Shown one piece after another: positions 46,520 to 64,000 of a DNA stretch of 64,000 bases. Numbering within the stretch: position 1 is the stretch's first letter; each line of letters starts with the position of its first letter. Under the pieces are notes generated by a model. The model saw nothing but the letters and a program-made list of their open reading frames with translations. It was not told the DNA's origin and searched no databases. The stretch comes from Obrimoposthia wandeli. Taxonomy: Eukaryota. The position numbers were made by a program, and so were the translations under genes. The stretch covers positions 124,001-188,000 of the forward strand of contig CDROCS010000586.1 in the NCBI GenBank assembly GCA_977020255.1. Reading direction: 5' to 3'.

Positions 46520-47817
46520 CAGGGTGCGGAGAAAGTTCCCGATCGAATTTTGAAAATTGAATTAAAGATATTATTATTTAACTAAATTTATCCATTTTTG
46601 GCTTATTTTGTTTGTAGATACATATATTTATATGTTTCAGATCCAAATTTCCAAAAATTTAATTTGCATTTGTTTAAAATGAGTAAACGTGAGGCCATTA
46701 TCCAACTTCATTGCATGGGAAAGACGAACCCATAGATTGTTAAGATCTTAAAAGCTCCAAAATCAACAGTTCGGGATGCAGTAAACCGATACAAAGAACT
46801 TGGGACATCAGACGATCGTCCCAGAAGTGGACGCCCCGAACTGCTCGCACCTCAGCCAAAATAAAGGCCGTTAGGGAGCGAATAAGGAGGAACCCCAAAC
46901 GAAGAATGAAGAAAATGGCCAAGGACTTCAAAGTTGACGAAAAAACTGTCAGAACAATTGTCAAAGATGATCTCAAGTTATCCCCTTTCAAGATGACTAA
47001 CAGACAACAACTGACGGAATTGCAAAAACAGAAGAGGGTCGAAAGAGTCAAGATTCTCCTGAACCGAAAGAAGGATGGCACGGATGCTGGGGTAATTGTC
47101 TTTTCTGATGAAAAAATGTTCACTGTTGAGGCTCAGTTCAACTCGCAGAACGACAGAATTTTAGCTAAGAGTGCTGATAGCATTCCCAGTTCGGTAAAAT
47201 CCGTTTACCGTCGCCAAAAACCTAGCTCGGTAATGGTATGGGCAGCCATCTCTGAGAATTGGAGATCCTCTCTCATTTTTGTTAAAGATGGTGCTAAAGT
47301 TAACGCAAACTCGTACATCCAGGATATTTTGACTCCAGCCCATGTTGAAATGAAGAAACATTTCAAAAATGACCCTTTCACATTCCAACAGGACGGTGCG
47401 CCATCTCACACTGCGAACAAAACTCAGGACTGGTGTGAGAATCACCTTCCAGCTTTCTGGAGGAAGGAATTGTGGCCTCCTTCATCACCTGACTTGAACC
47501 CTCTGGACTTTTGTGTCTGGTCCATCTTGGAGAGAGAGGCCTGTGCTACAGCCCATGATAATACAGAAGCTTTGAAGAAGTCTCTTAAGCGGGAATGGGC
47601 CAAAATTCCCCAGGAATCCTTTCGTGCCGCAGTGAAGAGCTTCAGGGGGAGACTTGAGCGTGTAATTGAAGCCAAAGGCGGCCACATTGAAAAATAGATA
47701 GTATAAATGTTAAATAGAGCTCTAACAAATTGTGTGTGTTATTTTTTGTTTAATTTCAACCTTTATTAGTTGTTAAATTTAACGTTTTATGAGATCGGGG
47801 ACTTTCTCCGCACCCTG
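46520..47817 (+). mobile_element. Full-length Tc1/mariner maT (DD37D) transposon
   Basis: 25-bp TIRs CAGGGTGCGGAGAAAGT(T/C)CCCGATC with one mismatch; TA TSDs at 46518-19 and 47818-19. Confidence 0.93.
46679..47697 (+). pseudogene. maT transposase, disrupted at the 5' end
   Basis: ATG at 46679, TAG at 46733 and a frameshift near 46838. Intact FSDEK, QQDGAPSH and SSPDLNPLD, with 37 residues between the 2nd and 3rd Asp. Confidence 0.88.
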
Positions 47818-50805: not shown

Positions 50806-52157
50806 GAGAAATTCATAAAATAATAGTTGAGAAATAAGAGATAAAAGTAATAAATAAATAGAAGTCGTAAGAAGTAAGCAATTACATACTTGATAAGACG
50901 ACGGTTAGTCAAATAGAACTCACGTTTAAATTTGAATTAGTTTTGAATTTTAGTTTTGAATTGACTGACTTGTTTGGTGAAGTAAACCAAGAAGAAATTG
51001 AAGTTATTGAAGTTGCGAATCAAGGAGATATTGAAATTGCAAATTCAGAGAAAATTAAGGAAATTGATTTGAAGAATTTTGAAGAAATAGTTGAAAATAT
51101 GGCTAACGCAAATAATAATGCAGAAAATAATGTAGATAATATTAATACAGAACAGTTGGCACAAGTTTTGAATGCGACGTTTAAACCCAACTTTACCGGA
51201 TCTCTGCAGATCGCAAAGTTTAAAGGAGACGAGGAAAGTATTTTGTGACTTCCTGGCGGAATATTCGAGTTGCGCAGATGTGCAAGGATAGAACGAAAGA
51301 GAAAAATGTGTCCGCGTACATGCGCATTTGACAGGATTAGCACTTAAAGTGTATAAACACATAATAAAAGCAGAACGTGAAGATTAGGAAACATTGGAAA
51401 AATGCTTTTATAGGAAAATTGGTGTTGTAAGATTTAGCAAACGTGAATAAACGAATTTTGAGAGAACATAAATAGAAACATAACAAGAGAGTGAATGAAT
51501 ACATGAATGCATCTGTTGGGGTTTCTATACGAAACTTGGTATAGATCCTCTTGAATGCGGAGGGCCCCAACGTGAGTTCGATTAGAAGCAGGTCTTAAAG
51601 TTGGTCGTGGCCTACTTAGTTTTATGGTTGCCTAATCTCTTGTACTATCTGAAGGTATTTGATTTGATGTCTCTTATTCTGAAGGGTGCAAAAACAACTT
51701 GTTCTAATGTAGGAAATTGTTTATTTGTAATTCACGAACTAAAACACAACAATACGTTTATGTACGTATTTTCTAAAAAGTATAGTAAAAATTCCTAAGA
51801 CTTCTGTAAGTCTCTACAACAAGTGGGGATGAACCACGTATCGATTTTATGTTAAGGGTGATCGAGTTTTTAGAGTCGTTCCTCTAACTCGCGAATAAGC
51901 TCAAGTTAAGATTTTCAATTTAATGTGACTCTTATGTCAAACTCTAACTTTAATTCCCAATTTAACTTTAATGGCAAACTTTTATCTTTATACCAAAACT
52001 ATGGCAATTTAGACAAAACTTCTCTTCAAACTTTTATGTCAATTTAGACAAAAACTTCTCTTCAAACTTTTATGTCAATTTAGACAAAAACTTCTCTTCA
52101 AACTTTTATGTCAATTTAGACAAATTAGACAAATTGTAATGTCAACTTTATGACAAT

Positions 52158-52408
52158 TTTAAAGGAAAAAACTTCTTTTATTTACTTCAAATTCTGTCCA
52201 ACTTTATAATGACTTTAAGGGAAAAAACTTCTTTTATTTACTTCAAATTCTGTCCAACTTTATGATAACTTTAAGGGAAAAAACTTCTTTTATTTACTTC
52301 AAATTCTGTCCAACTTTATGATAACTTTAAGGGAAAAAACTTCTTTTATTTACTTCAAATTCTGTCCAACTTTATGATAACTTTAAGGGAAAAAACTTCT
52401 TTTATTTA
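52158..52408. repeat. 56-bp tandem array (~4.5 copies) inside the solo LTR; preceded by ~3 copies of the 35/36-bp unit (52009-52125)
   Basis: TTTAAGGGAAAAAACTTC anchors at 52158, 52214, 52270, 52326, 52382. Confidence 0.9.
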
Positions 52409-52705
52409 TCTTCGTCGCGTCTCACCTATTTGAACCGATGGATATATGTTGGATTGTCTGCGCGAGCACGAGTTGTCCGGAGAATCACGGTCTGAGCGAG
52501 TACGATTTGTCTGCTAGCGATCTCTCCTTAGCTGGTTAGGTTCCTCGCTGTAGCTCGGCGGGGATAAATTTGATCGTCTCGCTGTGGCTCGGTGGGGATT
52601 CCTGATTCGATCCGCTGTGTGGATTGTAGAGTTGGCTGGAGATACTGCTCACTGTATAATAGTTTGCTCTATCTGATTAGAGACTGCTCGTCTAGCTTGG
52701 GTTTT

Positions 52706-52915
52706 GAGAGCGATCTGATTAGAGAGTTGCCGATTTCTAGCTTGTGTTTTGAGAGCGATCTGATTAGAGAGTTGCCGATTTTAGCTTGTGTTTTGAGAGC
52801 GATCTGATTAGAGAGTTGCCGATTTCTAGCTTGTGTTTTGAGAGCGATCTGATTAGAGAGTTGCCGATTTCTAGCTTGTGTTTTGAGAGCGATCTGATTA
52901 GAGAGTTGCCGATTG
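52706..52915. repeat. 45-bp tandem array (~5 copies) inside the solo LTR
   Basis: Unit GAGAGCGATCTGATTAGAGAGTTGCCGATTTCTAGCTTGTGTTTT. Confidence 0.9.
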
Positions 52916-53879
52916 CTTTTTTCCCGTTCTGTTGCTGGATTATCAATTATTACTCAATTGTATGAGTTCTTACCGGAGTTTCTTCTTTGCTCGGATATGC
53001 GTCTGTCGCAACAATGATTTCCCTTTTCTTTTTTGTGTAGTCGGTGTGTTGGTGACTTATATAGTCAATTTCCAATCAGCAATGTCGGGCAGCTGAAATA
53101 TATTTCCTGAGCCCTGAGCGTAATTCCTGACAGCTGAAAAATTCAATTAATTCACGGCACGAAAATGTGCTTACCGTTTCCTTGATTGACGTTTTTCTTT
53201 CTGCTGACGTTAGCAGATTCTAAATTATTCCCGTTTTGCTTTTGCTTAGTTAGTTTGTTGCACTTTTGGGTTAATTAATTTAACTTATATATATCTTACA
53301 CTATACACGACCTTCGTGGTCCTCCTAATTTTTACCCTAAATTCCACTAATTTCAATTCTAAAACTAAAATTATTATTTTAATTTAATTTTCAACCTTGC
53401 TTTCAAGGATTTTTTATTTTAGTATTTAATCGAAAAAATATTTAAATTTCTTAATTCTCAAACCTAACACATCCAAGAAAAATATTGAGAACTCCTGCTG
53501 GCGAACCTGTAGCAGCAGCTGTACAATTAATAGAAGATAATCTGAATCAAGGCGAAATGGCAGAGGTACTGTTAGATATATTTAGAGGTGAACTGTAAAA
53601 AGATACTAAAGTATTATTGTCAGTATCAAATATAAATGGTTTTGACAACACCGTGCGAAAGGCGAGAGAAATTGAGTAGAATATAAAGAATAATGTAGCG
53701 TTAGCAATTTACGTAGTGATGACAAATGATGATGATAAGACAAAGGTTTTTGTAAATAAGACAGAACCAAGTAATTTTCAAAATCAGAATTATGGACAAA
53801 AAGAGTCTAGAGACATAAATAAGTTCGAGAAAAGAAATGAATTTAGTAATGAAAATAAAGGTAGAAATAGCGACGATTT

Positions 53880-54700
53880 GAGAAATAAGGAAATCATAAG
53901 AACTAAGTTGGCATTAGCTATTACGAATCCAGACATGGTGGCACCACTATTGCTTCTAGACGAAGAAATATTTGCTAAATCAATGGGATAAGTAATGTAT
54001 ACGTACAGGGATAAAAAAGTACTGGTAAAATTGAGAGAAACAACTCGATGTACAAGTGAATTACCAGTAACATATAACTTAAAACCACTTTTTGTAGAAC
54101 CAATATCAAGGATGATACTTCCTATTGACACTCCATCTAAGGAGATAAGTTGCTCTAATATAATGGCACCTGAATATAGATTATTGAGAGACTTATGGAT
54201 AATATTACCTGACCGTAAGCGAACAGGAACTCCAGAGAGAATAAAAATGACGACACCCTAAGAAAAATGGAGTTCAAAGCTGTAACGAATATTGAAAGTG
54301 CAGGTTTATATAATTAGAAAAATCTAAAAGCGGCCTGGAATGAAATAATGTTTCCAGTAAGAAGGGCCAGAGTACTAACGGAAATGGTACATCGTGCATT
54401 ACCACCAAGAGCTACATATGCGAATTTTGATATGATATTGTCGGCAAGTCATTTCAAGGAAGTGGCACATCAGACACTTAGGAAAATGTGGGGAAAATTC
54501 TTTGTATTAAGACAATTTTTAAAGTATAATAGGAATTTTTGATATAATTATATTTGTACAGGTAATTATAGCTCAGGTGTTGTCCACATATAGTTTGTAC
54601 AGGATAACTGGAATCACCTGGCAGCTTATAATTGGATATTTTTTCTATTTCTAGCAAAATATCTAATGCACCATCGTCACGAAAATGAATTGCGAGCTCT
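53880..54700 (+). pseudogene. env: C-terminal half of a chuvirus-like (class III, gB-like) envelope glycoprotein
   Basis: KLALAITNPD...G*VMY...VKLRETTRCTSELPVTYN...FVEPISRMI...EISCS..APEY...IMFPVRRARVL...MWGKF, then hydrophobic IGIFDIIIFVQVIIAQVLSTYSLYRITGITWQL. Motif order matches chuvirus-type G from memory; stops and frameshifts present. Confidence 0.7.
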
Positions 54701-55033
54701 CAAGAAGGAGCAACATCAAACTAGAACTAGAACCGTCGAGACGACAATGACGACGATAATGATAGTTTGGGAGACTATGCGAAGATACCAAAAACAGGGC
54801 ATCCAAAAATTCCACTGTAAAACAAGGAAGAACCAGTACCAAATCTTTATCCAATGAAGAAACTAAAGGAAGAAAAAGAAAAGTTCAAAAGAGGAATTTT
54901 AATGATAAGATGGCCTAGAGTGAACTATAATAAGCTTCTATAGGAAAAAGAGAAAAAAGATAATTCCAGAAGAATTCTGAAGTCTAGGATATCTAATGAG
55001 AATCCGAATGCTCCACCACAAGTAGCAGTAACA

Positions 55034-55330
55034 ATGAACGGAAGAGAATATATTTCCGAGGTCGATACTGGATCTGCAGTATCAGTACTGAGTAAAGAAA
55101 TCTTGTCATCAAAAGAACTAGAAAAAGTGTGTCATAGGAAAAAAACATTTGTCAACGTAAATAGAACATATGTAGTATCAGAAGGAATACTGAAATGTAA
55201 ATTAACTATTGATGGAAGAGAACTGCTGCTAAATGCAAGAATATTCACCTATTGTGGTAGTCCAGTCATGATTGGAATGGATGTGATACGAATGTTCGAA
55301 GGAATAATAATATTAATAAACAACAAGAGT
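55034..55330 (+). pseudogene. Retropepsin (A2 aspartic protease) of element H
   Basis: VTMNGREYISEVDTGSAVSVLS and VMIGMDVI motifs. Confidence 0.85.
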
Positions 55331-56619
55331 ACTAAGAACAACAATTCAGTGAGAGAGATAAAGATGCTGGGAAGACCTATGAATGAAGGAAAAGACATAA
55401 CTAGTTTCAAGATAGAAAACTCGTACCGAAACAAGACATAGGAAGTGCTAGTGAATTCGATACTTCACTACAAAGGAGTAAATAGCGGACACAAGTGATC
55501 TTTATTGATTGCTTCTTTTTAGAGAGGTTGGATAAAAGGAAGAGAGAAACTAGTCCACAGAAAAGGAAAATTACTCAGTTGTTGTTGGTTGTAAAATCGT
55601 CAAGCGTGAAAAGAATCCCAGTCGACACAAATATTCAGAAGTAAATCTAGGTAAGAACCCCTTAGTTAAGTAGCGTCTATTTAATGTCTACTTTCTAAAA
55701 AAATTAGAGAAGAAGAAAAGGTGGTGAATTATCTATTATCGAGAAAATCGTATAAAAGGAAAATTATACAAGAAGAAATTGACTGACTCTTTCTAGGAAA
55801 TTATAGAAGAAAATTGCTTGACTCTAAAATTCGAAACAAGCAAACATCTCTCTAAAAAGGTAAGCAAAGGACGCAAACCAAAACCACTAAAATAATCAAG
55901 AAACTTTCACAGAATACTCATTGCGACAGAAGGCAATCGGATCGGCCAAATTTGAGGAGGAGTCGTGACAAGGATATCTAGACGCCGGAATCTCAACGGA
56001 AGAGAATCCTGGACTCTGTAGACCTACCGGAAAGTTAATCATCATATTTAGAGAGATGTGAGTTGTTGTGGAAAAGATATCTTTAGAATTGTTGTTCACA
56101 CAAGTGATTTGTAATTTTTATCATTTTGTTGGGGTTTCTATACGAAACTTGGTACAGATCCTCTTGAGTGCGGAGGGCCCCAACGTGAGTTCGATTAGAA
56201 GCAGGTCTTAAAGTTGGTCGTGGCCTACTTAGTGTTATGGTTGCCTATCTCTTGTACTATCTGAAGGTATTTGATTTGATGTCTCTTATTCTGAAGGGTG
56301 CAAAAACAACTTGTTCTAATGTAGGAAATTGTTTATTTGTAATTCACGAAACTAAAACACAACAATACGTTTATGTACGTATTTTCTAAAAAGTATAGTA
56401 AAAATTCCTAAGACTTCTGTAAGTCTCTACAACAAGTGGGGATGAACCACGTATCGATTTTATGTTAAGGGTGATCGAGTTTTTAGAGTCGTTCCTCTAA
56501 CTCGCGAATAAGCTCAAGTTATAGATTTTCAAATTACTGTGACTTTTATGTCAAACTCTAACTTTAATTCCCAATTTAACTTTAATGGTAAACTTTTATC
56601 TTTATACCAAAACTATGGC

Positions 56620-57365
56620 AATTTAGACAAAACTTCTCTTCAAACTTTTATGGCAATTTAGACAAAAACTTCTCTTCAAACTTTTATGGCAATTTAGACA
56701 AAAACTTCTCTTCAAACTTTTATGGCAATTTAGACAAAAACTTCTCTTCAAACTTTTATGGCAATTTAGACAAAAACTTCTCTTCAAACTTTTATGGCAA
56801 TTTAGACAAAAACTTCTCTTCAAACTTTTATGGCAATTTAGACAAAAACTTCTCTTCAAACTTTTATGGCAATTTAGACAAAAACTTCTCTTCAAACTTT
56901 TATGGCAATTTTAGACAAAACTTCTCTTCAAACTTTTATGGCAATTTAGACAAAAACTTCTCTTCAAACTTTTATGTCAATTTAGACAAAACTTCTCTTC
57001 AAACTTTTATGGCAATTTAGACAAAAACTTCTCTTCAAACTTTTATGTCAATTTAGACAAAACTTCTCTTCAAACTTTTATGGCAATTTAGACAAAAACT
57101 TCTCTTCAAACTTTTATGGCAATTTAGACAAAAACTTCTCTTCAAACTTTTATGGCAATTTAGACAAAAACTTCTCTTCAAACTTTTATGGCAATTTAGA
57201 CAAAAACTTCTCTTCAAACTTTTATGTCAATTTAGACAAAACTTCTCTTCAAACTTTTATGGCAATTTAGACAAAAACTTCTCTTCAAACTTTTATGGCA
57301 ATTTAGACAAAAACTTCTCTTCAAACTTTTATGGCAATTTAGACAAAAACTTCTCTTCAAACTTT
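56620..57365. repeat. 35/36-bp tandem array (~21 copies) inside the 3' LTR
   Basis: Unit TTTAGACAAAA(A)CTTCTCTTCAAACTTTTATG(G/T)CAA. Confidence 0.95.
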
Positions 57366-57366
57366 A

Positions 57367-57620
57367 TGACAACTTTAGGACAATTTAGACAATTTTAGTG
57401 TCAAACTTTATGACAACTTTAGGACAATTTAGACAATTTTAGTGTCAAACTTTATGACAACTTTAGGACAATTTAGACAATTTTAGTGTCAAACTTTATG
57501 ACAACTTTAGGACAATTTAGACAATTTTAGTGTCAAACTTTATGACAACTTTAGGACAATTTAGACAATTTTAGTGTCAAACTTTATGACAACTTTAGGA
57601 CAATTGAGACAAATTTTAGT
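57367..57620. repeat. 44-bp tandem array (~5.6 copies) inside the 3' LTR
   Basis: TGACAACTTTAGGACAATTTAGACAATTTTAGTGTCAAACTTTA at 57367, 57411, 57455, 57499, 57543, 57587. Confidence 0.95.
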
Positions 57621-58755
57621 AATCTCTCTTACGTTTTTTGTCTCGAGGTTGAGATATCCTGAAGCGTTCCGGAATATACTGAGATCGAACACAAAAACCG
57701 ATCGGCTGACTGAATTTGAATTGCCGAATGAAAATTCGCTGATATAGTGCTGACTGGAACAACAATTGAACTGGTTCACAAGCTCTGCTCCGTGATAGAT
57801 CGAGTTCGGTTGAATAGAATCGATTTGTATGTCGCTGTTACGACGTTGCCCAAATCCGTGATAGATTGATCTTTAAGTCTTGTGTGACGAAACGTGAGAA
57901 TTTCCCAATCAGTTAGTTTGCTAAATCAATAATTAAATCTCCAAGTCTATCACAAAACCACCTGGTTGCTGCTAGGGACAATGTTGGTTTTCCTTGGTTT
58001 TTTGTGGTCTATTTCTCGGTAGATTGGGATATTGCTTTTTCCGGTTGTGTATTTCGTTTTCTTGTCGACGACTTTTATAGTCGATTCTGCAACTCCTGTC
58101 TGTCAGTCAGCAATGTCGACAGCGGTTTCAACTGGAGTCTTTTGCGGCAGCTGAAAATTAAGTTTAAACACTCCAATTTAACTGCACGAAAATGTGCTTA
58201 CCTTGATTGACGTTCGATTTTGATTGACGTTCGATATTGTTCCCTTTTTTCTTCTTTGCTTAGTTAATGTGTCTTTTTGTTGCACTTTTGGGTTAATTAA
58301 TCTAACTTTTATACATTTCACATTATACACGACCTTCGTGGTCCTCCTAATTTTTACCCTAAATTCCACTAATTTCAATTCTAAAACTAAAATTAATATT
58401 TAATTTAATTTTCAACCTTGCCCTCAAGGATTTTCATTTTAGTATTTAATCGACTAAAATATTTAAATTTCTTAATTCTCAAACCTAACATACCTCGGGG
58501 GTTCCAAAAAAGTTACGTCCCCGGAACGTATCGATTTTACTTAAACAAGCCTCTGGCTGTTGATTTTAGGTTCATCCCTACAAAATCAATCATTCAACTT
58601 CAACAAACATGCCCAAAACAAAATTTCTCAAAATCCCGGTTTTTAGTGGGAAACATAATGTATAATTTGGAGCAAGTCTCAGACTATACATTATTATCTA
58701 TACACAAAACTACATGCATAACCAAGGATTAGGAAGGAAAGAAGGGAGGAAAGGG

Positions 58756-59286
58756 TCAATTGTCATAAGTTAGGTCAATTGTAATTGTCGGCTGGTTCCG
58801 ACTGGCCAGGTAGCGCAGAACCTGCTCCAGGGGTAGGTCGGGAAAGGACGGACTGTCCCCGTTGTACAGGTGTAGTTGTTGGCTCCGGGTTAGGTGTGGG
58901 CTCTCGACAAACAGGTCGAAATACTGCCCGTTCATCGCGTGATTTTCTATCCAGAGACGTCTGGCCTGGAACCACGAGTGGCAGTCTCGACTAGACCGCC
59001 ATCTCTCGCGGATGCCCAGTTGTGTGTCGCGCCGGCGTGCGAGACATACGTAGCATTGGCAATGTATGCCACCAATGCAGCTGGCAGGCGATCGGGTGCC
59101 CTTGTGCCTTCCACGGCTCTGGAGCGTCCATTTGCCAAAGGGTGTCCGGCACAGTGGACATGTGATATGGCCGGGGGGTCGAGCCTTGGCCCACAAATAG
59201 AGGCACTCCTCGTGGAATTTGTGACGGCAGCCGACAGGGGATGCTGATACCGCCCAAATCTTCTCCATGCATACAGAGCACTTCAT
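58756..59286 (-). CDS. RING-H2 E3 ligase-like ORF C (RING + C-x5-CxC-x2-C + C-terminal SIM-like ITIDLT)
   Basis: CSVC-x13-CRHKFHEEC-LYLW...CPLC; acceptor ttattttcttatgcag directly abuts the ATG at 59286. Confidence 0.88.
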   Translation of the reverse strand: MKCSVCMEKIWAVSASPVGCRHKFHEECLYLWAKARPPGHITCPLCRTPFGKWTLQSRGRHKGTRSPASCIGGIHCQCYVCLARRRDTQLGIRERWRSSRDCHSWFQARRLWIENHAMNGQYFDLFVESPHLTRSQQLHLYNGDSPSFPDLPLEQVLRYLASRNQPTITIDLTYDN

Positions 59287-59626
59287 CTGCATAAGAAAAT
59301 AACTCCTTTCAATTTGGGGTTCACCGTTCTCATCGTTAATTTAAATTTTATTTCAAAACGAATCCTTAGTTATCTAATCCTACCGAGTTTTGTTTCGATT
59401 TTAGGCATGTTTACGCATTCACACTAAGCATAAAAAATTGTCTTTTTAGAAATTCAGTATAATAATTACAATTTCAGTTAAACATCATACATAAAAATGG
59501 TAATGGTCAATTTACAGTTCACAAGATTATATAATTATGATTACAATTATGGTAGCTAATTTATCGCGGTATGCGATACACAGGGTAGTTCATGATGTCA
59601 CGTTCAAGTCAGAAAGTTACCTTCGA

Positions 59627-59932
59627 TTATTGTTGGGAATTGGGCTGGCCTGTGCTTCGCTCCTCCACGCAGAACGAGCACCAGCAATCGCAGATGGTTT
59701 TCCAGCAGTGTACGATGGGTACCACTGCTTGGAGGCTGTCTTGGTTGTACACGTAGTGTACTGAGAAGGTCGCTCTGCACATCGGGCAGGTTGGGAAGTC
59801 GAGGGGATTGTTGCTGTTTGCGATGGGGATCCACGTCTCGAGGCATTCGACGTGGAAAAGGTGGTCGCAGTTGTTGGGCTTGGTGTAGAAGTCCACGATG
59901 CCCTCGTAGCAGATGGAACATTCTCCAGACAT
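59627..59932 (-). CDS. RING-H2 E3 ligase-like ORF B (RING + C-x6-CWC-x2-C)
   Basis: CSIC-x13-CDHLFHVEC-LETW...CPMC; acceptor ccctcccacag 2 nt before the ATG. Confidence 0.88.
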   Translation of the reverse strand: MSGECSICYEGIVDFYTKPNNCDHLFHVECLETWIPIANSNNPLDFPTCPMCRATFSVHYVYNQDSLQAVVPIVHCWKTICDCWCSFCVEERSTGQPNSQQ

Positions 59933-59992: not shown

Positions 59993-60292
59993 TTACACAA
60001 AAGTGGTCTGATTTTGTCGATCTGACAAACAGTAATAACACCAACACTCTCCGAAATTCTTCCAACAGAATACCACCTGTACATATACATCTTCTTGGTT
60101 GGTTTCTAACATGATGAATCTTGCGAATTGTCTTCTGCATACAGGGCAACAAGGGTATGTTGGATGTCCGAACTGTCCATAAGTTCTGATCCATGTCGAT
60201 AAACATTCCTCGTGGTGTAAATGGTTGCAGGTTTCGGGTCTTGTTCTTCGTTCGGTTAGATCTTCCAAACATATTGGGCATTCTTCGGACAT
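59993..60292 (-). CDS. RING-H2 E3 ligase-like ORF A (RING + C-x6-CWC-x2-C)
   Basis: MSEECPIC-x13-CNHLHHEEC-LSTW...CPVC; acceptor tgtatttag 1 nt before the ATG at 60292. Confidence 0.88.
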   Translation of the reverse strand: MSEECPICLEDLTERRTRPETCNHLHHEECLSTWIRTYGQFGHPTYPCCPVCRRQFARFIMLETNQEDVYVQVVFCWKNFGECWCYYCLSDRQNQTTFV

Positions 60293-60415: not shown

Positions 60416-63400
60416 TCATATCTTGATGGGAGGCGGAGGTAAGGGTCGCAATTCCACTTCCTCCATGGTGGGTGTGTCACAGCATCGCAATCCTTCGCAT
60501 TTTCGTCGTATTCCTGGGCATACTTGACTGCCTTTTACGCACACGATTGTCAATAAAACCACTGCTGTTGACACTACGGCCATTCCAATTAGGGCATTGA
60601 CCGCTGTTATTCCGCTGTCTGATGATTTATAATCGTACTTCATTTTGTTGTTTGTCGGTTCGAATGACATTTCCATGGGTTTTGATCGGTTTCCATGTAT
60701 TATGTCCGATTTTCTAAAAATTCGGGGATTTGGGTGTTTTGTTTCTGATGGAACAGGTATTATTATTTTGGATTGGAAATGATGTTTGGGATCTAGTGGG
60801 ATCGTTCCCTGCACTCTTGTCCTCTTATTAATTGTACTTTTGTTTCTGGGATTTAGCTCTTTTTCTTTCGCTTCTGTCTTTGTTCTGATCACTGTCTGGT
60901 TTTTGGAATGGCGTTTACTTTCGATTACCTTTGCCTTCTTTTTGACTAGGATTGGTCTTTTGGGAATGATTTTCCTGGGTTTGATACTTATACCGGATTT
61001 ACGAAATCGACGGTTCTGGTATCTTAGAGTTATGTAGAATATTTCACCTGTTATTATCATGATTATGGTCGAGGTCTCTGTAGTATTACTGGCAATTCGA
61101 TTACACAGACATTCTGTGTTAAAATGTGGTACTAACATTTGGCTTTGGATTTCGAATCTGATTCCGCCATCTGGGTTGGGACACATTACTGTCACCCTGT
61201 CAGTTTCTAACAATCTGAAAAATATTCTAACGGAATTCCATACGGTTTTACGTCGTCTGCCTGTGATCATAATCCTGTCGACAATTTTCCAGATGCGCTC
61301 ATCTCTAGGCAATATTAATGACTTTGTTCGGATACTTTGGATAATCCGCTTCCTCTTTGATATTGTTATCCGTAGGTATAACACTCTTTCATGATACAAT
61401 AATATTAAATTGTAAACGGGTGTATTTTGGTCGATTTTTATTCTGACCTGTCGGATGACATACAATTTCTGATCGATATTGTCAGTTGCTGACGTCTGTA
61501 GATGAATGTCTACTACGTGATTTGTTTTTAGTAGGGGGATTTCTATGTATACTGCCCGTATTACGTCTTGTCTCCATTTACTGATCATGATCTCATAACT
61601 AGCCTTGGTAGTGGTGATTTGTATGATCAGCATGATTCCTATGATCGTTCGATTCCTAAACTCAGGAACTTCAATGAAACAAGTCAAATTACTCATATAG
61701 TACGGTCTTTCCTCGATGTGTTCATATATCGTTGGCTGGTATTCTGGTGCTGGTTCATCTAGAAATGGTGGACTTGGTATAATTGTGTTGAAATTTTGTA
61801 AGTTCATTTGACCTGTTCGTCTTGCGAGATCATGCCGTTTCTTTTTTGATCTCAACTCTAACTTTGTACAACAAAACAAGATGAGCAATATTAATATTAT
61901 AAATCCAATGATCAGTGCGAGTATTGGATTAACCAATTCTAGAATACCGTAACGTACTGCTGGTATTCCTTTACTCTTGATGGTTAATATTTTAAATTTG
62001 TGTGCACTTTGGTTGGACATGTCACTGAGAAGCACTATTTTAGTTTGTCCAAATATGTAGTCTTCACATGTGACAACACTAACTCCATAATGTCCATTAA
62101 GTGTTATCATTTCGGTCGCTGGGACTATACACATTCGTCCTGGACATCCTTTTACACACATGATCATCACGGCTCTACTGTGGGATGTCTTGATTATTTC
62201 TAGGGTGTTGTCTAGATTTCTCAAATGTAAATTATATTCGGATAGTGTCATCAATTCGGCTTTACTGGTTGGCATGGCTTGCAGTACCAATCCAATTACT
62301 ACTCCATAGATCAATCCTTGTACAACGGTGCACAGGGCCTTGACCGACCTTTTGCAAAGGGTTTTAATTATCAATCGTTTGAGAGATATCTGTTTCTGAT
62401 TGGATCGTTTTGTTGTCTGTCGTTGTTTTGACATCTCCTCGATTCCATCTCTTCCGATAATCAACTGTACCGGTTTACCTTGTATCATCAACTTTCCGAA
62501 TCCATTTTTGGCGGACAAGCATGTTTTATGTCCTTCCATCGTTTCAATTATCACTCTCTTACTTCCATACTCACGTGTTTTGATGACATCGCCGTCGAAT
62601 ATATACGTTGGTCCTTTTGTATCAGCATCTTTTTGTATTTCCTTTACAACTCGTTTTCTTCGCTTGCATCCGGCGAATGTTGTTGATATTTGGTCAAGTG
62701 TGCGTTGTCGGTCAGCTTCGTAATCTATCCGAAATTGATTCAGTATTCTGTTTTGTGGGTAAAATATCGCTTCATTTACTATGTTGTCTTCGATCCTTTC
62801 GTCTAGATACACAAGCACTTTGTTCGTTGGTCCATTTGGTCTTTTCATCTTTACAAACTGAAATCTTTTACTGTCGGTTCTCATAGATCGAAGACATTTT
62901 CGGATGATCCACACATCAATTAGTCCTAACAATACTAATAACATCATCAGTGCCGGCGTATGGTACTGTATGGTGTAGTTGTGGATTTCGTTGAACCAGG
63001 AACTATTTCCGTGGTTGGAGCCTATCTCCTGTGCTCCCGTTATCGGCATTAAACAACTTAACAAGCCTATCGCTAGCAATCTTTGGTATTGAAAGCTGGG
63101 CACTGTTGTTGTAGCTTCATTTGTTTCTCGTTGTTGTTTCCTCTTTTCGGTGTATTTCTCTATTTCTCGAACGAGTAACGGTTTGAATTCCGTATTTGGT
63201 CTATTCTGTTTGATGTAGACCATCGCTTCCTCTGGCGTGTGACCATGGTACTCTACCAACAAGGATACACCTATGGTAGGCGCTAACATTGTACCTTTTT
63301 TCTGATATATCAGAACGCCGTTTCCTTCTGTGACTTCGGCTTGGATGGTTTGAGTCAATTTCGTCAGATGTTGTTGTGCATCGTTTATTTCTCGATTGGA

Positions 63401-64000
63401 AGCATGTATGTATCGAGTGGTGTCATCTTCAGTATTTTGACACAGACTAATTATCTCGTTTCCGACTTCAACAATGTTGATTACTCGGTTGATACTGTGG
63501 AACTTTAATCCAGCAGTATCTATATCTCCTGGATGACATAAAAATACTTTTGGCATTATCTGTGTAATTTTATCGACTCCGGCTAAAAATAACCCGGTTA
63601 ATGATAATGCTTGGAGGAAATTCTTTTCCTTTGGGTCCTCAGGAATGTCGTCCATCCGTCTTTGTTCTTGCAACAGAAGTTGGTAATTTGCCAACTGTCC
63701 CAAAAAATTAAGATTTGGGTTTGCAATACTTCTTCTCTCCTGTAGGTATTTTAGCGCTTCTAGTACCTGCATTCGTCTAGTCTTTATTAGGTATGCTAAT
63801 ACTAGAGTTGCTGATCGAGAAATTCCTTTCTGACAATGTACCAACACTTTTCCTCGGTTCCGGAGTTCTCTGTGAAGTATTTCGTTTGTTTCTACGAACC
63901 ATTCGAGAAGATTAGCGTCCATTGAGTCTTTTACTCTTAATGTCATAGCTCTGATTGTCTGATATTGTGATTTGTGATTCATTGTAACGTTGATCACGTA
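60416..64000 (-). CDS. C-terminal >1193 aa of a retroelement-borne polyprotein: dual-specificity phosphatase, pseudo-phosphatase, three signal peptide/TM modules; open past the window edge
   Basis: Uninterrupted frame (TAC at 64000-63998 is in frame). VHCQKGISRSATLVLAYL at 63838-63812; a second DSP fold at aa ~144-283; alternating signal-like and TM segments. Lies between the window edge and the 3' LTR. Confidence 0.9.
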   Translation of the reverse strand, partial: YVINVTMNHKSQYQTIRAMTLRVKDSMDANLLEWFVETNEILHRELRNRGKVLVHCQKGISRSATLVLAYLIKTRRMQVLEALKYLQERRSIANPNLNFLGQLANYQLLLQEQRRMDDIPEDPKEKNFLQALSLTGLFLAGVDKITQIMPKVFLCHPGDIDTAGLKFHSINRVINIVEVGNEIISLCQNTEDDTTRYIHASNREINDAQQHLTKLTQTIQAEVTEGNGVLIYQKKGTMLAPTIGVSLLVEYHGHTPEEAMVYIKQNRPNTEFKPLLVREIEKYTEKRKQQRETNEATTTVPSFQYQRLLAIGLLSCLMPITGAQEIGSNHGNSSWFNEIHNYTIQYHTPALMMLLVLLGLIDVWIIRKCLRSMRTDSKRFQFVKMKRPNGPTNKVLVYLDERIEDNIVNEAIFYPQNRILNQFRIDYEADRQRTLDQISTTFAGCKRRKRVVKEIQKDADTKGPTYIFDGDVIKTREYGSKRVIIETMEGHKTCLSAKNGFGKLMIQGKPVQLIIGRDGIEEMSKQRQTTKRSNQKQISLKRLIIKTLCKRSVKALCTVVQGLIYGVVIGLVLQAMPTSKAELMTLSEYNLHLRNLDNTLEIIKTSHSRAVMIMCVKGCPGRMCIVPATEMITLNGHYGVSVVTCEDYIFGQTKIVLLSDMSNQSAHKFKILTIKSKGIPAVRYGILELVNPILALIIGFIILILLILFCCTKLELRSKKKRHDLARRTGQMNLQNFNTIIPSPPFLDEPAPEYQPTIYEHIEERPYYMSNLTCFIEVPEFRNRTIIGIMLIIQITTTKASYEIMISKWRQDVIRAVYIEIPLLKTNHVVDIHLQTSATDNIDQKLYVIRQVRIKIDQNTPVYNLILLYHERVLYLRITISKRKRIIQSIRTKSLILPRDERIWKIVDRIMITGRRRKTVWNSVRIFFRLLETDRVTVMCPNPDGGIRFEIQSQMLVPHFNTECLCNRIASNTTETSTIIMIITGEIFYITLRYQNRRFRKSGISIKPRKIIPKRPILVKKKAKVIESKRHSKNQTVIRTKTEAKEKELNPRNKSTINKRTRVQGTIPLDPKHHFQSKIIIPVPSETKHPNPRIFRKSDIIHGNRSKPMEMSFEPTNNKMKYDYKSSDSGITAVNALIGMAVVSTAVVLLTIVCVKGSQVCPGIRRKCEGLRCCDTPTMEEVELRPLPPPPIKI

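Follow-up and report, generated by a model that had tools for sequence, protein, structure and literature searches.

The window examined here, meaning the whole stretch of 64,000 nucleotides that was analysed, holds on its minus strand the 3' part of an LTR retrotransposon with a total length of 24.6 kb. A 4-bp target duplication, ATTT, flanks both LTRs, which differ in length by ~70 bp (Table 1). In the interval from the polyprotein to the 3' LTR there are three tandem small RING-H2 genes (ORFs A, B, and C), the last of which, ORF C, ends ~270 bases from the 3' LTR. Beyond the phosphatase domains listed in Table 1, the polyprotein encodes gag, a zinc knuckle, a ubiquitin-like domain (PF00240, E 0.0036, below the cut-off), a mononegavirus-type fusion envelope situated between gag and protease (PF24664, E 5e-66), a protease, a BIR domain (PF00653, E 3e-9), a RING, a protease, RT, RNase H, and integrase; in the window copy it is broken into several pieces. 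On the basis of its bounding LTRs, its length of >20 kb, its PR-RT-RH-IN order, and its envelope, BIR, and ubiquitin-like domains, we classify the element as a Burro-like, envelope-bearing giant gypsy. The published Burro/GYPSM1 planarian gypsy is likewise a giant LTR element present in very many copies, with ubiquitin and apoptosis cargo and with gag, ubiquitin-like, in-frame fusion envelope, protease, BIR, RT, RNase H, and integrase domains, whereas 3' RING-H2 accessory genes, a SUMO-interacting motif, and phosphatases are unmentioned in the section that describes it (PMC6431247 section 7). The family is young and abundant, as judged from its near-identical copies: the best 150 of 18,136 first-look candidates were all 98-100% identical to ORF C, and 149 of these 150 had no internal stop.

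Table 1. Positions of the features discussed in the text, numbered within the window unless a contig is named.
Feature	Position	Strand	Basis or remarks
ORF C, 176 aa from the ATG after AG	58756..59286	-	N-terminal RING-H2, then a second Cys cluster, a long helix, a tail helix, and a disordered tail that holds TIDLT
ITIDLT, residues 168-173, predicted SUMO-interacting motif	58768..58785	-	conservation; host PIAS-type match; pLDDT
IDLT core, residues 170-173	58779-58768	-	
RING-H2 of ORF C	59146..59280	-	C3 C6 C20 H22 H25 C28 C43 C46, plus W32, P44, R47
Second Cys cluster of ORF C, C70, C76, C78, C81	59044..59079	-	similar C..C-x-C-x2-C cluster in ORFs A and B
CAG directly 5' of the ORF C ATG	59287..59289	-	likely 3' splice site of a subgenomic mRNA
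ORF B, paralogous RING-H2 gene, no tail	59627..59932	-	
ORF A, paralogous RING-H2 gene, no tail	59993..60292	-	
Polyprotein 3' part, two dual-specificity phosphatase domains	60416..64000	-	extends past the window
3' LTR, TG...CA	56127..58490	-	
5' LTR, TG...CA	G000:C586:202265-204695		
Probable last exon of a PIAS-type gene	L237 3155-3709 (G000:C456)	-	three TIDLTSDDE motifs, two from an internal duplication

Several other features of the element and its surroundings were recorded. Within the LTR, units of 36 bp and 44 bp are arrayed in tandem (window 56558-57660). At 51511-55495 of the window lies a partial LTR oriented like the main LTRs, and after it comes a decayed envelope/protease fragment in inverted orientation that shares ~80% identity with the main element; together they are probably an older copy that was hit by the insertion of the young element. 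The polyprotein tail (window 61700-61800, minus strand) has a predicted membrane segment and then a PPxY-like stretch, which could recruit a NEDD4-type ligase; the WBP-1 match in this region is weak (E 0.044). In the Gag region (L032:1970-2380, minus strand; G000:C586:197970-198380), IEILDSSSESGD follows the ubiquitin-like domain (frame residues ~513-590) and IVDLD comes later, making two further stretches that look like SUMO-binding motifs. A DDE transposase fragment (PF13358, E 7.7e-7) at window 46744-47697 is unrelated to ORF C.

ORF C lies in a minus-strand frame (59340-58756) whose translation ends ...RNQPTITIDLTYDN before a TGA stop at 58758-58756. An earlier note on this DNA had reported that the protein ends in ITIDLT and contains a RING, and both statements proved correct: the translated C-terminus reads PTITIDLTYDN, and the N-terminus matches PF13639 above its cut-off (E 3.1e-7; 31 bits compared with 27.3 bits), with no loss of the eight zinc ligands, of the Trp in the helix, or of the Arg that follows the last Cys. 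H25, C28, and W32 are invariant in all 31 stop-free ORF C copies, while P44 and R47 are presumably E2-binding residues. The second Cys cluster probably binds a third zinc. An AlphaFold2 model of ORF C (mean pLDDT 80, pTM 0.48) is confident for the RING and the helices; tail residues 169-176 have a pLDDT <50 and are predicted to be disordered. Residues 53-176 had no Pfam match, fold searches with ORF C returned only RING domains (all E >0.001), and an Atlas comparison placed viral RING clusters at 0.87-0.90, which serve as leads only. A search for ORF C relatives of 96-308 aa found none among 16 candidates, and the best 150 of 211 matches in a representative search were RING-only or spurious, with no full-length relative outside the Obrimoposthia genome. 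Pfam also gave no PF02891 (SP-RING), SAP, or PINIT match in ORF C. Given its eight-ligand RING-H2 and its lack of an SP-RING, ORF C is predicted not to be a SUMO ligase. A SUMO-motif scan with four patterns matched ORF C only once, and the motif scan found no TIDLT-type tail in ORFs A and B. Two other readings of the ORF C sequence were discarded: a PDZ ligand at its end was ruled out, because the residues after IDLT and the position of the stop vary, and the F-box-like look of FPDLPLEQVLRYL had no Pfam support.

GCAG immediately precedes the ORF C ATG in 29 of the 31 stop-free copies, which belong to five subfamilies, and TTTAGA or TGTAGA lies 5' of the ORF A ATG in 23/23 copies. We infer that the accessory-gene mRNAs would be spliced and subgenomic, as are those of retroviral accessory genes.

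To judge the C-terminal motif, its chance frequency has to be considered. The expectation for [IV]DLT is 0.003-0.006 per protein of ORF C length and 0.0002-0.0004 within the last 12 positions; it was found twice in 195,970 six-frame residues from other DNA of the same genome and in 1 of 150 unrelated search matches, mostly RING proteins. However, such odds apply to a motif picked post hoc, and therefore conservation is the real test. ITIDLT was present in 60/60 near-identical loci of the window's subfamily, but these loci were picked by similarity and are thus uninformative on selection. Older subfamilies were reached from a window fragment of 80% identity, which led to 20 regions, five with RING genes; downstream of the older-subfamily matches in the remaining 15, no RING gene match was found. 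Two ORF C sequences from the RING-bearing regions then served as new queries, and 40 more loci were extracted. It should be noted that the SF2/SF3 query ended in DLT, possibly with a slight favouring of motif-bearing matches, whereas the SF4 query stopped short of the motif. Setting aside 2 duplicates, 2 partial copies, and 59 near-identical window-group copies left an alignment of 101 rows, from which 11 rows that were out of frame between the RING and the tail were removed for presence counts. Median identity to ORF C was 50% in SF2, 58% in SF3, 35% in SF4, 61% in SF5, and 67% in SF6.

Among in-frame rows, [IV]DLT was found in 24/29 of SF2, 16/17 of SF3, 18/28 of SF4, and both of SF6. The conservation of IDLT in other copies, which the earlier note had made the check on its proposal, was thus borne out in four of the five diverged groups (60/76 rows) but failed in SF5 (0/13). 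Misses in SF2-SF4 were mostly single changes or frameshifts in decayed copies, and of 20 further loci, 12 had the motif, 4 had a degenerate form of it, and in 4 the frame shifted ahead of the tail. When all 101 rows were compared, IDLT ranked first for identity among 171 four-residue words, ahead of CIGG, being kept in 76% of SF2, 94% of SF3, and 60% of SF4 rows. In comparisons of the window copy with SF2 or SF3, IDLT had a pN of 0.02 or 0.01 and a pS of 0.80 or 0.91, respectively, while the RING had a pN of 0.31 or 0.20 and the motif flanks a pN of 0.44-0.88; these are uncorrected proportions from few sites and related pairs. The corresponding IDLT pN relative to SF4 was 0.16, a value affected by indels. 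All six Leu and all three Ile codons occur within the motif, and since silent sites vary freely, the constraint on IDLT acts at the protein level. The distance separating the motif from the last helix is variable, and in many SF4 copies the stop directly follows DLT, often as IIDLT behind an acidic run. By these measures, IDLT behaves as a short linear motif under protein-level selection, with all of the conservation data coming from one lineage of elements in one genome. The rest of the protein appears constrained as well: pN was below pS in 12/12 group comparisons of the RING, the Cys/basic region, and the tail helix. Many older ORF C copies contain stops.

The exception, SF5, is a single young clade (support 1.0) whose terminal branches are short and which is nested among motif-bearing groups, adjoining the window's own group in the tree. 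Its RING is intact, the frame from RING to tail is unbroken in 11 of the 13 copies, ORF C has pN below pS, and ORFs A and B are adjacent. SF5, of which at least 40 copies share 95-100% DNA identity, is abundant without the motif, and hence the motif is dispensable for multiplication, unless it is supplied in trans by other subfamilies. SF5 copies (L165-L177, L207-L212) use several stop positions, one of them ending in DVDFILP, and three have a window-group-like N-terminus, which suggests recombination between subfamilies.

Whether a conserved TIDLT is a SUMO-binding motif can be addressed from the host genes. The genome contains 13 SP-RING (PF02891) matches, and 9.5 kb was read around six of them; the host PIAS-type controls match PF02891 at E 4e-20 and 3e-21. 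On C611, an in-phase GT-AG intron of 742 nt links an exon with LTIDLTSDNEE to the SP-RING exon, and on C456, a same-strand ORF located 3.6 kb downstream of the SP-RING has SVTIDLTSDDEE twice as well as GTIDLTSDDE, both links being DNA-inferred. These two host PIAS-type loci have four TIDLT motifs in all. The SP-RING exon is present twice on C456, and an extra IDLT there is in a short frame that is probably intronic. TIDLT was absent from the 9.5 kb read at each of the other four PIAS-type loci, and none of 102 candidates was a full-length PIAS relative at 1e-20. The Thr form seen in ORF C, TIDLT, therefore appears to be what host PIAS-type genes use. Subfamilies close to the window's end in TVTIDLTSDN, and the match between ORF C and the host PIAS-type motif extends over eight to nine residues, a likeness for which convergence and capture would account equally well. 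Pieces of the element family also lie a few kb from two host SP-RING loci (L238, L240), as expected by chance given the copy number.

The earlier note had described the motif as the (V/I)DLT type of RNF4 and PIAS proteins. IDLT is indeed present, but the preceding residue is Thr, so that the core is T-I-D-L and not the human V/I-V/I-D-L. SUMO-interacting motifs are described as loose (PMC12751080 section 13), and in the parallel type a hydrophobic fourth residue is essential above all, with other positions looser (PMC12751080 sections 13, 16). VIDLT is given as a high-affinity PIAS core, with acidic flanks and several motifs driving the affinity of RNF4 and PIAS and with RNF4 needing several for SUMO chains (PMC3901395, part of the text). 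The SUMO-binding peptide of human PIAS2 is VDVIDLTIESS (PMC9071424, part of the text), which the SF3 and SF6 tails, TIDLTIDN and TIDLTIEN, resemble; in the window's group, the acidic flank of IDLT amounts to one or two residues. A host SUMO exon is present and is 76-79% identical to other SUMO proteins, its three named nearest relatives being flatworm proteins. When the ORF C tail was modelled in complex with a flatworm SUMO as stand-in, the score was 0.32 (mark, 0.34), which we count neither for nor against binding. Our literature search returned nothing on TIDLT together with SUMO. From the conservation and the host motifs, we consider it quite probable that the IDLT of ORF C is a real SUMO-binding motif.

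Other roles for the motif have to be weighed with these data. IDLT could bind a different partner, such as the element's own ubiquitin-like domain, CtBP (PxDLS type), or Atg8 (LIR type). The polyprotein does include a ubiquitin-like domain, albeit at an E value below the cut-off, published Burro polyproteins are reported to include a SUMO-like domain (PMC6431247 section 7), and one hydrophobic pocket is common to Atg8 and SUMO (PMC12751080 section 16). However, the element's domain has no match to the SUMO family PF11976, whereas the host SUMO exon matches at E 2e-16, and the motif and its flank match host PIAS-type tails. A Pro before the core marks the CtBP type and an aromatic residue the LIR type; among 67 motif-bearing rows (two places counted twice), these precede IDLT in only 2 and 4, respectively. 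A different partner is thus a distinctly unlikely explanation. It is less plausible still that IDLT is not a protein-binding motif at all, being instead a structural strand, a degron, or the by-product of a nucleic-acid signal. The nearness of the ORF C end to the 3' LTR would suit such a signal, and at the low pTM of the model, packing could be missed; against this, silent sites are free, the distance to the helix varies, the tail is predicted to be disordered, and the motif-less clade keeps an otherwise conserved protein. That ORF C is simply an unexpressed passenger of the element is highly improbable: the stops in many older copies would fit, but the uniform excess of pS over pN, the AG directly 5' of the ATG in nearly all stop-free copies, and the near absence of internal stops among the best 150 copies all speak against it.

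If SUMO is the partner, the motif might still bind it without choosing ubiquitination targets, either by placing ORF C at SUMO-rich nuclear sites, through self-SUMOylation, or by competing for the SUMO groove with host PIAS; the substrates of the RING would then be recognised otherwise. Such a role would suit a single motif that was cleanly lost in a successful clade, and the near match to host PIAS-type motifs fits competition. There are also precedents, as the Rad18 motif additionally drives Rad18 SUMOylation, some STUbLs need no SUMO on the substrate (PMC3526273, part of the text), and several motifs of viral proteins function in localisation or self-SUMOylation (PMC12751080 section 32). 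Nevertheless, a RING and the motif occur together in one small protein across groups down to 35% identity, which is the defining layout of a SUMO-targeted ligase, and we regard binding of SUMO without target choice as rather unlikely.

With the gene, its position, an intact RING, the protein-level conservation of IDLT, and a motif form common to host PIAS-type loci established, we propose that ORF C may be a SUMO-assisted, substrate-selective ubiquitin ligase, encoded as a RING-H2 accessory gene of a giant Burro-like element, and we give this proposal an even chance. Its mRNA would be spliced to the AG before the ATG, and the RING of the protein would recruit an E2; a Trp in the RING helix has been tied to activity without dimerisation (PMC8161396, part of the text). 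The flexible tail would engage SUMO, situated at the target or close to it, through a parallel beta-strand, and the middle region, with its Cys cluster and long basic helix, would provide substrate specificity or oligomerisation, possibly together with ORFs A and B. Having a single motif, ORF C would act like the substrate-specific Rad18 and ICP0 and not like the poly-SUMO reader RNF4, and the motif would sharpen targeting without being essential. The earlier note had seen in ORF C the RING-plus-SIM layout that defines STUbLs; a RING and a conserved, accessible, predicted motif are there, but the clustered motifs of the RNF4 type are absent. As the other sequence criteria agree, we refer to ORF C as STUbL-like by layout and would not file it as a STUbL.

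Known ligases offer partial parallels. RNF4 and RNF111/Arkadia also combine a RING with an xIDLT-type motif in a disordered region, but their motifs are multiple and clustered and their RING is C-terminal (PMC3901395, PMC8161396, parts of both texts), whereas ORF C carries its RING-H2 at the N-terminus and a single motif at the C-terminus, and resembles them in sequence only within the RING. HSV-1 ICP0 (PMC12751080 section 32), VZV ORF61, and KSHV K-Rta, as far as the partial sources describe them, are likewise parasite-encoded ligases with one or more SUMO-binding motifs that could counter SUMO-dependent repression, yet they are DNA-virus proteins, are much larger, and target PML bodies. Fold matches of ORF C to ICP0, ORF61, and baculovirus IE2/PE38/CG30 were weak and RING-only (E >0.001), and the likeness to viral ligases is functional, not by descent. 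Yeast Rad18 is a RING ligase in which one described motif boosts activity on a SUMOylated substrate and is not strictly required, but it is a host DNA-repair enzyme, unrelated outside the RING and with another motif type (PMC3526273, part of the text). PIAS/Su(var)2-10 proteins share TIDLT, located downstream of the SP-RING at two host loci, and differ in having an SP-RING where ORF C has a RING-H2 (PF13639). Finally, the anti-silencing factors of plant DNA transposons are similarly element-encoded accessory proteins proposed to counter silencing; they bind DNA sequence-specifically, whereas ORF C, from an animal retroelement, would act via ubiquitin and SUMO (PMC11512509, part of the text).

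The most attractive targets of such a ligase would be SUMO-dependent silencing factors. In flies, SUMO and Su(var)2-10 connect piRNA recognition to silencing (PMC11512509, part of the text), and partial sources list PIAS proteins, KAP1, and SETDB1 among RNF4 substrates. Burro is repressed by nuclear PIWI in planarians, with SUMO not mentioned in the available part of that source (PMC8532177). An anti-silencing role for ORF C is nonetheless a plausible but rather doubtful suggestion, and the other cargo of the element (BIR, phosphatases) would fit apoptosis or stress signalling just as well. In its full form, which is similarly doubtful, a retrotransposon-encoded SUMO-targeted ligase would copy the host PIAS motif, take the PIAS docking site on SUMOylated PIWI-pathway and heterochromatin factors, and have them ubiquitinated, as an ICP0-like counter-defence against piRNA/SUMO silencing, with gain and loss of the motif among subfamilies as the record of an arms race. 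DNA viruses counter SUMO-based repression with SUMO-targeted ligases, and the question is whether animal transposons attack the SUMO step of silencing. A 176-aa protein, a four-residue motif, and a natural motif-less sister clade make this question directly testable. RING-plus-motif ligases of cells and DNA viruses are already known, as are Burro elements; a SUMO-targeted ligase of a retrotransposon was not seen among the listed titles and abstract starts of the library searched.

Ubiquitin-like sequences were also encountered elsewhere in the genome. One locus (L200; G000:C2592:107500-111500) has diverged ubiquitin-like units that repeat in tandem every ~270 bp, each separated from the next by an in-frame stop, and a similar unit spacing was seen on C2050, C1456, C4682, C1351, and C58. 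These arrays are perhaps small exons or a satellite-like Ubl array. At three further loci (L201, L202, L203), long ORFs carry a ubiquitin-like domain fused in frame ahead of retroelement gag-like sequence, which we take to be BEL/Pao-like.
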